Shown: in pieces, positions 2,951 to 23,734 of the stretch | Position numbering within the stretch: the stretch's first letter is position 1 | How the letters are laid out: each line of letters opens with the position of its first letter | Assembly (NCBI GenBank): GCA_951406725.2 | Contig: OX597822.1 | Coordinates: forward strand, 20,584,001-20,648,000 | Length of the DNA: 64,000 bases | Source: Octopus vulgaris | Taxonomy: Eukaryota | Direction: 5' to 3' | Made by a program: the position numbers and the translations under genes | The notes under the pieces: generated by a model | What the model saw: only the letters and a program-made list of their open reading frames with translations | What the model was told of the DNA's origin: nothing | Databases searched by the model: none

Positions 2951-4431
2951 AACGATAAATTTTATGCGTATGAAAAAATTCCTATTGGCAGATCATAATG
3001 TTGGTAAGCAGTAGTAGCAGCACCTAAAGACGTCTGTAGTGAGCCTAGAATTCTAAATGTACGGAATACGCACTAAACTTCCCCACATTGGACAATTTTG
3101 CTTATTCCAGGAAAATGAGATGAAATAAATTATTCTCTCAAGATCTAGGGAAGTGAAATGCAAAAATTTCAATAATTTCAAATAAATAAACTGTATGTAG
3201 ATGAAGTGTTTAATTATTTAGGATAAAACTCCAGTGAAATAAGATATATTGCTCCCTGGTTGGTAGGTATGAAATAGCATTAGTGACAGGAATATATACT
3301 AAATTTTTTTTATTACCTTTTGAAGTACTTGAACGTAAGTGAAAAATTTATTGCTGAGCGTTTTTATACAGAAACAAAGACCATCAATAAGTTTTAGCGA
3401 CATAAATACATATTTAATAAATATTAGCTTAGTATCATCACATGGTAGTTGAAATTTAATGAACCCAAAATAAATATTATGAAAACGAATTTTTATAATA
3501 AGAGTTTAGAAAATGAAGGTGATTGATGCTGCGATCTGGTTCTTGATTTAGTTATAAAATTTCCTGCTACGGAAAACATCTCTTTACTGCTAAAGTACAA
3601 CTAGCAACAAATAGATTTTTGTGAAATTTTTTTCTCTGTTGCTTCTTTTGATCTGTTGCCTCGAAGATATTGAGTTCCATTAAGAGGTTTTTCGGAACTG
3701 TTCATTAGCTTGCTAATAAATATCTTTGATTTTTCAACACCACCCGATTAATCAACTGCGATTTCGAATATGTCGAGGGTTTTTTGAGTATCTTCGTTTG
3801 TCTCACAAGATGTAAATTTGACAGATCCAACAAAACGGCAATATAATATGTTTTGCGATTGTCTCTCACAGACTTTTTGGTAAACTCACCTCTTGATACA
3901 AATTTCCAGCGAGACGAATTTTGTGATTATTTCTACACATTTTGATAATTAAAAAACATATATTATAAGAGGTATACTTGCCATCTCAATAGGGTGGGTG
4001 TTACTGTAGCTTGAAGCCCCAGGAGAACATCGTCTCCAGCTTGCTTTCGGCACACTTTCTGTGCCCTTATGGTATTTGCAAAGGAAGGTCATCCCTCCCC
4101 CGTCAACCTAAGTGATACGCACGGACTGCAGTTCCTAGGTATTTATCTGTCTTCAGCGTGCGTCAATCACCGTTTTCGATTAATTCTTTATTATGATTAT
4201 AAAATCAGTACATAGAAGAACAATACAGGACATACATACAAAAAACAGTTAAGTGGTTCGTTTAAAAATTTCCAAAATATATGGATTATTCATTATACAA
4301 AACACTGTGTTTAAATTGTCCTTTGCATTAACTAATATAACATTACATTAGATTGAAATCTTACCGATATATTTTAAACCTCGGCAACCTATAAGGCCCC
4401 GCAGCTTTCCTTTCCTCTTCTCCATCCATAG

Positions 4432-6728
4432 TTAAACTGGGTTTCTGACACCCACCTTTTTCGCCACTTCCTTCCATCTTTTTTTATACACACCTCGTGG
4501 TAAGGTCTTCTTTTCCAGCCCCATTTTGCTCTTCAGATGATATCTGAAGTAAGTGAGCAAGCCAGGGCCTGAGACAAAGGATCCTATTGCGACTCCTTCC
4601 ATTTTAGTACGCCACATGCATTCTTTTACTACTGCAACCGTGCAGTGAAAACATGCCTCACCTTCCTTCGAGAGTCCAGTTGGCGGTATCATCTTAATCA
4701 TAGACTCAGCCGACAGCTGTACTCGTCCCAGATGCGATAACACGTGTTCTGCGTAACTTATCAAGTCTGACAACTGCCTACAGTGTACAAAAGCGTGCTG
4801 GGCGGTTTCATCGTCCAACCCGCATCTTGGACATGTCGGTGGCACTGAAATTCCGTGCCGCGATAACTTCTCGCGAACAGGTAAAGCATTCCTATAACAC
4901 TGCCAGGCCAGGGATCTTTGGAAATTATCCAAATACCCCATCCTGAAAGTCTTTTTAAACAAGTTGGTAAGCTGGTCTTCGTCGAACCCCAGAGCCCCTC
5001 CTAGGACGTCGTCGTTCTTTGCCTCTACCAGCCTGCTATAAAATACCGAGGTGGTATTTCCGCAGCCGGCCTTGCTCGCCTTGTGGATCAGCGTGAGTGC
5101 CTGTCGGCACTCATTTTGCCATAAAGTCAGATTTCGTCTTTTGATGCAACCGGGTTTAAAATTCACTAAGGAAGCCGGTCTCGGGAAAAATTCCCCTGCC
5201 AGCGGACTCCAAACCTTATCATCCTCCAGGTGGTGCCAGAGATGCTTCAGCCTCAACGCATGTCTGCGCATCATCAACCAAGGCATTCCTAACCCACCCT
5301 TTAACGGTTCCTGGCAGCAAACGGAGCGCCTCACAAGTGGCTTTCCTCCCTTCCACAAAAAGCGGAAAAGGATTCGCTCCAACTTGCTAAGCCATGAATC
5401 AGGGCAAGGGATAACGGTCCGGCGGTAAGTGATTACAGATGCAATGAACATCTGTACCACCTCCGCCCTTCCTTTCAAGGACAGAAACCTTCCGGACCAG
5501 GTCCGTACTATGGCCTCCACCTTGTCCGTCACCTCACTCCAATTCCTCTTCGTTTGGGAGTCTGGCCCAAACCAAACTCCTAGCAACTTAACAGGACCAT
5601 CTGTCCAGTGTCCCACGGCACTGGACGATATCGACTTGCTCCTCCAGGTGCCGAGGCGTAAGCCAATCGACTTGTCCTTGTTAACTTTTGCTTCTGCCAT
5701 CGCCTCGTATCTTCTGATAGCATCTTCTACACAAGGTAGCTGAGCCTCATTGGACACGATGAGGGTGACGTCATCCGCATAAGCAGAAACCGTCCTCCCG
5801 CCTCCGATCTCATCCGGGTTACTTCCTAGCCTCTCCAACTTTCGCAGCAATGGCTCGAGAGCCAACACGTACAAAAGTGGTGACAAGGGGCACCCTTGAC
5901 GAACTGAACATTCGATCGAAAACGGTTCCGTTAGGTAACCGTTTATCTGGACGGTGGACTTGATGCCGCTATACATAGCGGAGATCCACCCGCGAAATTC
6001 AGGGCCCAGTCCAGCCGCTTCGAGGACCGTCGCCAGGTACTTATGGTCTACCCTATCGAACGCTTTACTTTGGTCTAAATGGACCATTACCCCGCCCTTG
6101 CCGGTTAATTTACCCACCCTATCTAAGGTGTAGCGTATAAGGTGAAGATTGTCCTGGATCGACCTGCCTGGAATTGCACATGTCTGTGCTTTCCCTACAA
6201 GTTTCTCCATGACAGTCGTCAACCTTTTTGCCAACACCTTGGCCAAAATCTTAACTTTACATTAAGTAGAGTTATGGGCCTGTAATTACTAATGTTATCC
6301 CCCTTGCTCGGGTCTTTATGGATTAGCGTCACCACTCCCCGGCTTACAGAACTGGGAATTCTCCCGTTCTGCTGCCAGTTCGCGTAGACGCCTGCCAGTA
6401 TTCCCCCGAACAAGTCCGGCATACTTTGATAAAACTCGTAGGGCAGACCATCCAACCCCGGCGACTTCTCCCCGGCGCATCCGGCCAGTACCCCCTCTAT
6501 CTCCGCGAGAGTGATCGCTCCTTCACAGCACTCCACCTCACGCCCCGAGAGCCGCGGTCCGCCGGCTAGGAAGTCCTTTAAGGCCCTCCCCCGCTCCAGC
6601 GACCCCCCGAACGCGCGGGCGAAATGCTGGTGAAGAAACTTTTGCATCTCCTCCTGTCCATAGATCTTGTGTCCCTGTTCATCAGTTAAAGACTTGATTG
6701 AAGCTTTGTTACCTCTCTGACTCTCCAC
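4432..6728 (-). pseudogene. LINE ORF2 reverse transcriptase plus C-terminal CCHC (zf-RVT-like); frameshift near 6250; no APE endonuclease
   Basis: KSPGLDGLPYEFY, NYRPITLLN, LDQSKAFDRVDH, VRQGCPLSPLLY, AYADDV, KLLGV, GGLGMP and CPRCGLDDETAQHAFVHC. The layout is typical of L1/Tx1 ORF2, split over ORFs 6219-6728 and 4432-6246. Confidence 0.9.
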
Positions 6729-6750
6729 TCGACGGGCCCATCCGGCAACG

Positions 6751-7563
6751 TTAATACCTTCTCGTTTCCCAGGAGAGGCTTAATACCTTCTCGTTTGAGG
6801 AGAGGCTTCGCTGTTTTTCTTTTTTTTTTATGCAGTTCGAGCGGATGTGACCCTTTTCCCCACATTTGAAACACCTAGTTCTGCGCCCCTCCACTGACAC
6901 TCTCATTGAAATTCCCTCTTCAATAAATACCCTATCGGGTAAGTTTTCTAGCACATTATTTTCTGCTTGAACGAGGAGTTCGAGCGCTTGTTCCTTCCAG
7001 TTTACCTCCCCTTTCTTTTTCATCTGCAGAATTGAGACTTTCTGCTCTACGTCGTGCATATCATATCCTCTTGGTATATCTTCCACATATATTTTCGCAG
7101 TTCTTTTGCCCATATAGGTAGGTAGTAACATAATGTCCTCATTTTTTAAGGTCATTGATGAAATTTCTCTTGCCACATCAGCCGAGTCGAAATGTGCTTC
7201 AACGGTAGCGCTGCGAGCACCTCGACCGACGTAGCGAATTTTGCTCCACACCGGGGACAAGCACTTCTCTACTATTTCGTTCTTCACGTCCATTATTTTT
7301 TTCTCTTTGTTACTGTAAACCTTGTACACGACTGTCTTGGCCTTTATTCCCTGTAATATCGCTTGCGGCGGTACCAGTTTTATTTCATTGCCTTCCATTT
7401 TGACCAAGTTCCGGTATTCGAACAACTGTTCTATTTTGAATTCCACTTCCGTTACGGTTCCACCCACTGCGGCCGAAAAAGACTGTTTTCTAACCTCGAT
7501 ATCCTTCAGTTCGCCTTTTCCCATCACGGGAAAGTCGCTCCTCGACGCCAAGTCAAACTCCAT
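6751..7563 (-). CDS. LINE ORF1 (gag-like nucleic-acid-binding protein with CCHC zinc knuckle), C-terminally truncated
   Basis: 270-aa ATG ORF directly upstream of ORF2 containing RCFKCGEKGHIRSNC. Confidence 0.8.
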   Translation of the reverse strand: MEFDLASRSDFPVMGKGELKDIEVRKQSFSAAVGGTVTEVEFKIEQLFEYRNLVKMEGNEIKLVPPQAILQGIKAKTVVYKVYSNKEKKIMDVKNEIVEKCLSPVWSKIRYVGRGARSATVEAHFDSADVAREISSMTLKNEDIMLLPTYMGKRTAKIYVEDIPRGYDMHDVEQKVSILQMKKKGEVNWKEQALELLVQAENNVLENLPDRVFIEEGISMRVSVEGRRTRCFKCGEKGHIRSNCIKKKEKQRSLSSNEKVLSLSWETRRY

Positions 7564-8352
7564 TTCTTAAATTATGAGAACCAATTTTTCAGAAAAATTA
7601 CCCCGAAGGTAATAACAATGTTTATACACAGAATTTTCAGCCCGTAGGGCGAAAATTACTGTCACACAACGGACAACTGTTCAAATTCACGAGCAAACAC
7701 AAACAACGACGAACAAAAAACGGACTCACTCAACAAAATAGGCTACTAACTTCTCAATACGCCGATGAAAGAGGGGTCCCTAGACGAGTGACAAACCACC
7801 GGTTTTCGATGAAGGGAGTCCCAATGCAAATCCTTATATGGTTTTTCCAGTAACTTTTCATCACTGATCTCGAAAAACTGTATGCAAGCAATAATAAATC
7901 TCTGAACGAGATATAAACAGTAACTGCACGACAATATGATGTATACTTGCCATCTCAACCGCTAAGGGTGGGTGTTACTGTAGCTTGTAGCCCCAGGAGA
8001 ACATCGTCTCCAGCGGTTAGCCATATTCAGATGTCAAGTATACATCATATTGTCGTACAGTTACTGTTTGTATCTCGTTCAGAGATTTATTATATATTAT
8101 AAGGTTTACTGACAAGTTGCCGTTTCTTGCTCATTGCTATTTCCAATGAGTTTTTCAATTGTAACAGTTGACTTTTCAACCTTATGCTCCTTCTGTAAAT
8201 ATCGAATAAACCCACTATATTCCACTTCTACTTTATATTGTTTACAGTTTCTAAGACCAAACTAATTCATAAAATATTCCGAAACATATGATTCCGACAT
8301 TATTGTTTGAAAGTATTCAATCCAAACAAAATATGAAACGCACAGTCTAAAT

Positions 8353-18078: not shown

Positions 18079-18561
18079 TTACGGAGATGTACTCGCATAG
18101 CAAGTAATTTGATCTGAGATCGTGTGCTGAAACGAAAACAATTGCAGCGTGGAAGGTGTTTATAAGCCATTTAAGAAACACACAAAAGCCGTTCGATTCG
18201 CTTCAACATTTAAGTTTAATTTGTCAAAATATTTTCGTCGCTAAAATCCGCGACCTGTTCACTGACAAAAATCCGTGCTGCATCGCAGCACGGATTTTTG
18301 TCAGTGAACAGGTCGCGGATTTTAGCGCCATTTCGAGCTCTCTCCAACTCTATTACATAAATTATGCATGACTCCACCTCATTTCTCCCCTTCCTTCCTT
18401 CCCTCCCCCGTGTCCCTCTGATTTACAACGAACACCTCTAACAGGTCGCGGATTTTAGCGACGAAAATATTTTGACAAATTAAACTTAAATGTTGAAGTG
18501 AATCGAACGGCTTTTGTGTGTTTCTTAAATGGCTTATAAACACCTTCCACGCTGCAATTGT
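18079..18561. mobile_element. Fold-back (inverted pseudo-LTR) PLE-type element in (TA)n, with a templated insertion in the right arm
   Basis: Arms 18138-18281 and 18285-18561 are reverse complements with a 3-nt loop (ATC); the right arm is interrupted at 18328-18440. Confidence 0.8.
18220..18269 (-). ncRNA. Candidate minimal hammerhead ribozyme (G3-C8 core variant)
   Basis: TTTGTCA|GTGAACA|g|GTCGC-ggatttta-GCGAC|GAAA|ATAT|TT|TGACAAA: 7-bp stem I, 5-bp stem II and palindromic stem III. Confidence 0.6.
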
Positions 18562-18709: not shown

Positions 18710-18866
18710 ACGACGGGCTTCTATAACTTTCCGTCTACCAAATCCATTAACAAAGCTTTGGTGAACCCGTGGTTATATAAGACACTTGCCCAAGGTGCCA
18801 CTCACTGGGACTGAACCCAGAACCATGTGGTTTGGAAGCAAGCTTCTTACCATACATCTACGCCTA
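18710..18866 (-). mobile_element. SINE family A, 5' half
   Basis: GACACTTGCCCAAGGTGCC...GGGACTGAACCC...AAGCAAGCTTCTTACCA. Confidence 0.8.
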
Positions 18867-19591
18867 CATCTATACATACATACATACATACATACATACA
18901 TACATACATACATACACACACACATTTATATCAATGTATGTATTTTATTAGCGTGCTTATGAATAGAAGAAATCCAATTTGAATAAAGAATTCAACGACT
19001 TAAAAATCAGAGTATTTAAATAAATATTATAAGAATAAGAATTGATTGCAATGTTTTGAGAACGTTTGTATCAATCAAATGTTATTTTAAAAATCTGTCG
19101 TTTCCCTCTCGCTCTCCCTATCCCTATATTTATATATCTTATACGTGTGCGTGTGTATGCATTTAGTGCTCGTTAACGCCATTTCGAGCTCTCTCCAACT
19201 CTATTACATAAATTATGCATGACTCCACCTCGTTTCTCCCCTTCATTCCTTTCCTCCACCGTGTCCCTCTGATTTACAACGAACACCTCTAACTTGAAAG
19301 AATCATAACGAATTGGCTATCTGTTTCTCCATATTAATGACCTACACAGATACAGAAAAAAGCTATTTGTGGTTGTGAAAAAAATATGAAATACGAATCA
19401 TATTTAATTTATTGTATAGATATAAGGTTTTGAATCAATCGAGAAAACAATCTTGCTTCTCTTGCAAGCCGTCAACAAAGGATGCATAATCAACGACTCA
19501 CATTTTATCACACACACACACACAGTATACATATATATATTGTGGATATATATATGTATATCGTGTATATATATATTGTGTATGTATATAT

Positions 19592-22258: not shown

Positions 22259-23390
22259 TTGGGCTCGCTATGGGAACAAGAATGGGCCTCAATCTCGCCA
22301 ACCTATTTGTTGGCCTCATTGAGGCCCAAGTATTCTCCCAAATTCTCCGGACCAAGCCCAGAGCTATACGGCCGCTACATTGACGACTGCATATGCCTCC
22401 ACCTCCCTCTCTCGCGAACAACTCTGCCACTTCATCTCTTTTCTCTTTAACTTTCACCCTTCTCACCAATTTACCTCTACCATCTCTAGCACCTTGGTAA
22501 ACCTCCTAGATATCTCTCTCACTATTGACCTGTTCTCCCACTCTCTCACCACCTCCGCCTGCTTCAAACCCTCGGATCCCACCTCCACCTCAACTTTTCC
22601 TCCTCCCAGCCCTCCCACACCAAACGGGCCATCCACTACACGCAGTTACTCCGCCTCTGACGCTTGTGCAGCCGGGACCAGGATTTCGAAACCCAGTCCC
22701 AGTACCTTGCCCGCCTGTTCATGCATGTCCATGCATCCAAATCGCCCTTGTTCTCGCGTGTCTCATCGATCGCACCACAGCACTCACTCCTTCCACATAC
22801 CAATACCCTTCACCCTTTTCCAACCCTCCATTCCACCCTTTCGTCGGAGGATCCTACAGGCCTTCAGTCTTCTCCAGCTACATCCCACCATCCACCCTAT
22901 TTTCCTCAACCCACCCTTGCCCTCCTTTAAACGCACACGTAACTACGCGATCTATTGGGCCGTATCACCTTGCCCTCTTCCCTCTCAGCTCCACCCGGAT
23001 CCTCCTCTTGCTCTAGATCCCGCTGTCACACCTGCCCTTTCATCACGAACACCACCTCCTTCACTAGATGCAACCAGCACACCTCCACATTAGAAACTCC
23101 TTCTCCTGCACCTCTTCAAGCCTTATCTATTGCAGTAAATGTAATCTCTGCAATAAGCTCTACGTTGGTCAGATGGGCCGCCGGCTGGCCGACCGATTCA
23201 CCGAACATCTACGAGATGTTCGGCTACGCACGAACACCCCGTCGCCCGTCATTTCCGCTTGGCCAACCACTCCACCTCTAATATCTCCATTCTTGGCCTC
23301 GTCCTGCACCACGACTCCGCCTGGAACAGCATTACATTTTCAGTCTACAAAATACAAACTCCTCTCGGACTCAACACAAACGACTGTTTT
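22259..23390 (+). pseudogene. Penelope-like element (Neptune-type) RT plus GIY-YIG endonuclease, 5'-truncated and frameshifted
   Basis: [38 protein letters not shown], Cys linker CSRSRCHTC, SCTSSSLIYCSKCNLCNKLYVGQMGRRLADRFTEH and PLGLN. Confidence 0.85.
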
Positions 23391-23734
23391 TATACCCTCC
23401 TTAAAAAGCGACATTTTATCCTATTTTATTTTATTTTATGCTCTCTTATATCCACTTACTTTTTTACACTGGTACCCTTTTTTCGATTTTTTATCGTTTT
23501 TTTCCATCGAAATTTTAATTTTTTAATTGTATTAAATTTTTTTATAATGTTTTTTATATTTTATCCCTTTAATTTTTATTTTTTATTTTCTATCTTGTAT
23601 CCTTTATTTTTTGTATTTTTTATTCATCTTTTTTATTCATCTTTTTTATTCATTAATTTAGTTTTTCATCGTGTGCCCTTCCGCCTTTATCCCCTTTTTT
23701 ACCGATCGTATTTTATTATATTTTGTTTTATTTC

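Follow-up and report, generated by a model that had tools for sequence, protein, structure and literature searches.

The 50-nt motif at positions 18220–18269 of the window, the 64,000-nt stretch of the Octopus vulgaris genome that we analyzed (contig OX597822.1), is a natural, selected variant of the minimal hammerhead of Penelope-like elements (PLEs), carrying G3-C8 where C3-G8 is expected. Judged from sequence, it sits in an otherwise ordinary Penelope-like stub and represents no new kind of system. The 3-8 pair, which to our knowledge is C-G in nearly all hammerheads, sets the position of their general acid. An earlier note, made from the window's letters alone, had proposed a hammerhead candidate here. 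Every element that it named is present, and the strand, which it left unstated, is minus (18269–18220); the Penelope-like parent was absent from its interpretation.

The assignment as a minimal type I hammerhead with a G3-C8 core draws on sequence, predicted fold and covariation with a sister family. Read along the minus strand, the motif consists of a 7-bp stem I (18269–18263 with 18226–18220), the core GTGAACA with G3 and C8 (18262–18256), an unpaired extra G between positions 9 and 10.1 (18255), a 5-bp stem II (18254–18250 with 18241–18237) that includes G10.1-C11.1 (18254/18237), a GAAA box (18236–18233) and an AATATT palindrome that forms the stem III region (18233–18228). A15.1-U16.1 and H17, here U, are also present (18236–18227), and the predicted cut falls between 18227 and 18226. 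The core reads GTGAACA rather than the canonical CUGANGA (or UUGANAA), and its 3-8 pair, G-C, is Watson-Crick; the motif is best described as a variant of the PLE minimal hammerhead and not as a canonical member. Positions 18259–18265 form a 7-nt quasi-palindrome centered on G3 whose inversion would change C to G, and one may speculate that position 3 was changed in a single step by such an inversion.

Minimal hammerheads are known in the pLTRs of metazoan PLEs, where a natural U3-A8 variant occurs in Schistosoma, and are described as weak even as dimers (Cervera and de la Pena, 2014; PMC4209133). The window motif has all four hallmarks of PLE minimal hammerheads given in that paper, core letters excepted. 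It resembles these ribozymes in its type I topology, the extra nucleotide between 9 and 10.1, G10.1-C11.1 and a palindromic 15.2-16.2, as well as in its pLTR location and its thousands of truncated and opposite-strand copies. However, its G3-C8 pair lies outside their C3-G8 and U3-A8 descriptors, and its stem I has 7 bp instead of the usual 4–5 bp. As the earlier note had said, the swap is best known as an engineered compensatory mutant: C3G/G8C partly restores cleavage of the anole PAc hammerhead (PMC11167929), is also described as an engineered partial rescue in a review (PMC8495972), and PMC3884650 refers to a G3-C8 construct. The octopus element and PAc share this 3-8 swap (in PAc, that of its mutant), a PLE pLTR motif adjoining the ORF start and a two-site “tail.” In the octopus, unlike in PAc, the swap is natural and family-fixed, activity of the motif is predicted only, and the ORF begins 92 nt past the core instead of inside stem II.

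In the literature searched, U-A was the one natural 3-8 swap found. The variants of Perreault et al. (2011; PMC3088659) resemble ours in their natural covariation at 3-8 but differ in the pair, since those described in the available text are U3-A8 only and G3-C8 goes unmentioned there. We found no natural G3-C8 hammerhead in this literature, including the available portions of PMC6765202, PMC6155905, PMC10085705, PMC2920678 and a 2026 bioRxiv retrozyme preprint. As Lunse et al. (2017), on small PLE hammerhead variants, fell outside the search, a natural G3-C8 case may still exist in print.

Folded in silico, the 50-nt motif has both stem I and stem II in its minimum-energy structure (−14.7 kcal/mol, z −3.4), and as good a fold was obtained in 1 of 200 shuffles. 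Our own descriptor, which leaves positions 3, 8 and 9 free and was run on 1,187,817 bases (1.19 Mb) of fetched DNA, gave zero matches in three shuffles of that DNA; therefore, the motif is not a product of chance. Rfam covariance models applied to 18085–18560 returned 17 matches with E up to 10, none a hammerhead, and these proved to be microsatellite and hairpin artefacts only.

A sister family with 57% RT identity and many intact 1312-aa ORFs has the same fold architecture at the homologous place, but with C3-G8. Four of 11 pairs differ on both sides between the two families, one each in helices I, II and III plus the 3-8 pair, a covariation that rests on a single outgroup row. Alignment of the motif to the sister beats all 300 shuffles, and neither the 50 nt upstream (238/300 shuffles) nor the spacer to the ATG (90/300) aligns. 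The compensatory pair changes, set between flanks that cannot be aligned, argue that the structure is selected, and we regard the hammerhead fold as being, on this comparative evidence, under selection. The unpaired catalytic letters U4, G5, A6, G12, A13, A14, U16.1 and H17 are common to both families.

The free descriptor recovered 10 other motif classes from the fetched DNA, all with a Watson-Crick 3-8 pair (four C-G and six U-A) and none with A-U. The young sister family has C for the conserved A at position 9 in 11/11 matches (at L177:1137 and L177:5725; also in L176 and L178–L180), which would make it another natural core variant. U3-A8 hammerheads occur in the same genome in a two-ORF Neptune-like family (781-aa ORF2) and in several smaller families (loci L069, L070, L093, L100 and others), and three further classes have C3-G8.

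The family is large. Within the 2.8-Gb assembly, where the match sets given here overlap, a 33-mer downstream of the motif has 5,665 matches, so that at least this many arms exist. When positions 3, 7, 8 and the loop are left open, the motif pattern matches exactly at 3,986 places genome-wide, and older loop classes contribute a further 2,947 matches with C8 and 211 without it. C3 occurs in 0 of the 300 motif matches listed from these overlapping sets. Among 98 arms from 88 loci, sampled solely by the downstream 33-mer anchor, those reaching the site have G3 in 69/70 and C8 in 65/72. The natural double swap at 3/8 that the earlier note had inferred is thus fixed in a large family. A metagenome scan returned one weak, uninformative locus.

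Four loop-defined subfamilies, with divergences of 2.0, 2.6, 5.2 and 6.8%, account for 77, 28, 51 and 5 of 189 arms, respectively, with the remaining 28 in none of them, and G3-C8 is the majority state in all four. Majority changes between subfamilies number 12 in about 152 flank positions versus 0 in 42 structured positions, a contrast that is not significant (p 0.07). We discarded a stronger contrast between loop and core (5/9 versus 0/42, p 5e-5) as circular, since the loop had defined the subfamilies. In the oldest subfamily, a 2-nt insertion shortens distal stem I.

Departures from C8 are not evenly distributed. By hand count, position 8 is T in 49, G in 40 and A in 11 of the 100 non-C8 matches listed; the G3-G8 mismatch form makes up about 3% of older arms, and G8 is commoner than mutation predicts and over-represented relative to A8. 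The form, found at L031, L109, L165, L166, L181, L345 and L351, recurs in several subfamilies, on young and old backgrounds and in ORF-bearing copies. A single ancestral clade of G8 arms is not supported, as the nearest neighbors are non-G8 for 9 of 11 and the other two are near-identical twins. This recurrence could reflect either a dead core that is tolerated or the survival of RNA that escaped cutting. With G3-G8 and the sister C9 taken together, the clade does appear to tolerate core changes.

What element carries the motif? The copies with coding sequence place it in the pLTR of a Penelope-like retroelement that encodes an RT with a C-terminal GIY-YIG endonuclease and looks Nematis-like. 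RT motifs and a GIY-YIG domain (PF01541, E 1.8e-5) lie upstream of the motif in L134–L137 and L172–L175, including a 1025-aa open frame in L172 with a YVDD motif and PF01541 at 915–1005; the Pfam RVT_1 profile gave no score on this frame. The ATG of the same ORF lies 92 nt after G3 in L339 and L355, and also in L338 and L350, which have truncated motifs. A second motif position lies past the ORF stop, at a distance of about 1 kb. In L339 together with L174, two motifs point the same way and flank an ORF at a spacing of 4,261 nt, a pLTR-ORF-pLTR layout, in a copy that has a stop near codon 129. The RT-endonuclease protein has 20% identity to that of the Neptune-like family of the same genome, and 266 homologous proteins were found as protein records, without DNA context.

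The direct and inverted pLTR arrangements, one-sided tail and microsatellite targets of the family are those of EN+ PLEs. As in Nematis and Neptune (Craig et al., 2021; PMC8557442), the RT is followed by GIY-YIG with a CxxxCxxC linker, and the copies include partial tandems and inverted 5′-truncated forms, have a tail on one side only and sit in (TA)n targets; this tail is about 58 nt here versus 30–40 nt there. The Nematis clade is described as having a short CX2-5CxxC linker (PMC8557442), and the linker before the octopus endonuclease resembles the Nematis rows and not the Neptune rows of the Craig supplement, a likeness of spacing judged by eye against those rows and not tree-based. A Naiad parent, first suggested by the (TA)n targets, was rejected because the endonuclease is C-terminal, not N-terminal, and three pLTR-specific strings were not found in the available Craig supplement. 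The 781-aa Neptune-like family was rejected as parent because it carries its own U3-A8 motif.

The window copy is a stub made of two arms. Its sense arm (18079–18284, minus strand), identified as the pLTR of a Penelope-like element by identity to the pLTRs of ORF-bearing copies and by the end maps, begins 1 nt past the inferred RNA start and extends to the farther of the two 3′ ends, where it abuts (TA)n. Within it, the ORF start (18079–18170, minus strand; ATG at 18170–18168) comprises the first 30 codons and is cut off in the stub; the same frame runs on into the RT-endonuclease protein in L338, L339, L350 and L355, and these 30 codons, the last 90 nt of the stub, align with the N terminus of the sister-family protein. 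The one-sided tail, about 58 nt (18079–18137, minus strand), lies between the family's two preferred 3′ ends, as defined by 98 arms. A supposed continuation beyond the tail in L031 turned out to be a target duplication.

The inverted arm, on the plus strand, is broken. Its first part (18285–18327) holds the 5′ half of a second motif copy, interrupted inside stem II by a 112-nt insertion (18328–18439) that is flanked by a 21-nt duplication (18307–18327 = 18440–18460); its second part (18440–18561) resumes with the 3′ part of the motif, lacks the opening letters of the core as well as the 5′ strand of stem I, and continues to the nearer 3′ end and then (TA)n. The insertion is 96% identical to 19179–19290, at a distance of 850 bp; each of its junctions shows a short match, and it looks templated, by repair or template switching. 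The two arms are 99% complementary and constitute one inverted duplication. The GTGAACA that the earlier note had pointed out at 18304–18310 is real, but as the opposite-strand arm of the same duplication, it is not independent conservation.

Since the opposite arm is inverted and broken by the insertion, it cannot serve as a dimer partner, and the tandem dimer that the earlier note had wanted assayed is not supported at this locus. RNA read through both arms is predicted to fold as one long hairpin in which the motif is destroyed, and RNA starting at the arm center is predicted to form the motif (stem I 0.94, stem II 1.00). The window copy itself is likely inert. Non-LTR retrozymes consist of head-to-tail tandem hammerhead units, and this copy is an inverted pair; the sampled family copies are mostly single or inverted arms, with a few short local tandems (L351 and L352). 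Elsewhere in the window, we noted by eye frameshifted LINE-like ORF1 and RT ORFs (4432–7566, minus strand) and the decayed remains of a further Penelope-like element, which include a GIY-YIG-like stretch (22323–23526, plus strand). A copy of an abundant short interspersed repeat, common to many fetched loci and which we take to be SINE-like, occupies 18730–18860.

The ends of the copies bear on how they were made. Counting from G3, which puts the predicted cut at +36, 38 of the 98 arms have 3′ ends at +123 to +129 and 57 at +180 to +195; these two sites match the pair of internal RT starts by which the tail of the anole element is defined (PMC11167929). At the other end, 52 of 98 arms start at −27 to −15 and 85 cross the cut site. 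Because the stubs cross this site, the template RNA would have been uncut, and most copies appear to have been made from such RNA. Of the 98 arms, 1 begins at the cut, and it represents an internal deletion. When junctions close to the cut were sought specifically, 812 matches were obtained; inspection by eye of the 100 listed left about 26 true junctions, of which 1 lay cleanly at the cut, about 12 were compatible with it through microhomology and 13 were not. Cut-site starts therefore represent at most roughly 2% of arms.

Examined at the junction base, 26 of 118 arms start at −23, and 21 of these show an extra G at a position that is C in the parent. Among such starts not beside an inverted arm, the extra G is found in 8 of 11, or 6 of 8 after removal of two duplicates and one non-junction; an excess of starts at −22 was query-biased and left out. 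An extra 5′ G is a known trace of a copied cap from work on L1, and the −23 site resembles the consensus of an initiator. We infer that the element RNA is capped and starts 23 nt upstream of the core. Reading the pile-up at −23 as a splice acceptor was rejected in favor of the capped start, as the arms share only one upstream G and no exon. In the parent, at L135:8600–8660 and about 50 similar loci, the sequence just upstream of the inferred RNA start is branch-point-like and acceptor-like, with 472 exact matches. An intron, or splicing in longer RNAs, is possible.

How might such a motif function? We lean toward the reading that this PLE terminal-repeat hammerhead fold, with its swapped G3-C8, works as a weak ribozyme that would cut only as a dimer or together with the protein of the element; the anole PLE hammerhead cuts only with protein (PMC11167929). 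Capped element RNA would start 23 nt upstream of the core, and the element RT would prime inside the RNA, at one site about 125 nt and another about 183 nt past the core. Where this happens in the first of the repeats, run-off at the cap would yield stubs of ~200 nt, and the window would hold an inverted pair of such stubs in (TA)n. Cutting, if any, would be occasional: two AAUAUU palindromes of one tandem transcript would pair, and the cap would be lost along with the first 59 nt. Counted against a weak ribozyme are the missing pile-up of 5′ ends, the recurrent G3-G8 form, the C9 of the sister and the dimer energy, as a two-molecule hammerhead dimer is predicted to be no more stable than two monomers (−27.2 versus −29.4 kcal/mol).

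Several of these observations would fit a fold kept for a non-catalytic job, such as protein binding, translation or a promoter-proximal structure, and no longer cutting at a meaningful rate. Copies derive from uncut RNA, G3-G8 copies were amplified and the sister family has C9; moreover, cleavage by the anole PLE hammerhead is dispensable for insertion in vitro (PMC11167929). However, the unpaired catalytic letters and a Watson-Crick 3-8 pair have been kept, neither of which binding alone needs, and the double swap is one known to restore activity in part. We consider loss of the catalytic role, the main rival reading, possible but rather unlikely. A third reading, that an efficient ribozyme routinely cuts tandem transcripts and only the RNAs that escape are copied, so that the genomic record hides the activity, is improbable. 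Two of four intact upstream motifs in read-through copies do carry the predicted-dead G8 (L345 and L351) where about 3% would be expected (p about 0.005), as survival of uncut RNA would predict, but n is 4 and the enrichment concerns one change only. The lack of a pile-up at the cut, the slow cleavage of minimal hammerheads in vitro (PMC4209133) and the only partial rescue by G3-C8 also speak against efficient cutting. An accidental resemblance, or a neutral relic carried by copy number, is largely refuted and very improbable, for although identity among young copies (2–7% divergence) says little and Rfam gave no match, the descriptor had zero matches in shuffles and the motif occupies the homologous place in the sister with four compensatory changes.

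A further and rather tentative idea is that an active natural G3-C8 hammerhead is kept as a throttled switch between capped RNA, which is translated and copied, and decapped RNA. Taken with the C9 of the sister and the U3-A8 of other families, such a hammerhead might show that PLEs explore every core pairing and that many “hammerhead-less” PLE families carry forms invisible to CUGANGA searches.

With thousands of copies and G-C held through at least four subfamilies, the family offers a natural experiment on the amount of activity that a retroelement requires. Hammerhead counts made with CUGANGA descriptors would miss whole families such as this one. The 5′ end map offers a testable account of how PLE stubs may originate, by internal priming in the first repeat and run-off at the cap, and it suggests that uncut RNA serves as the template in vivo, as it does in the anole system in vitro.
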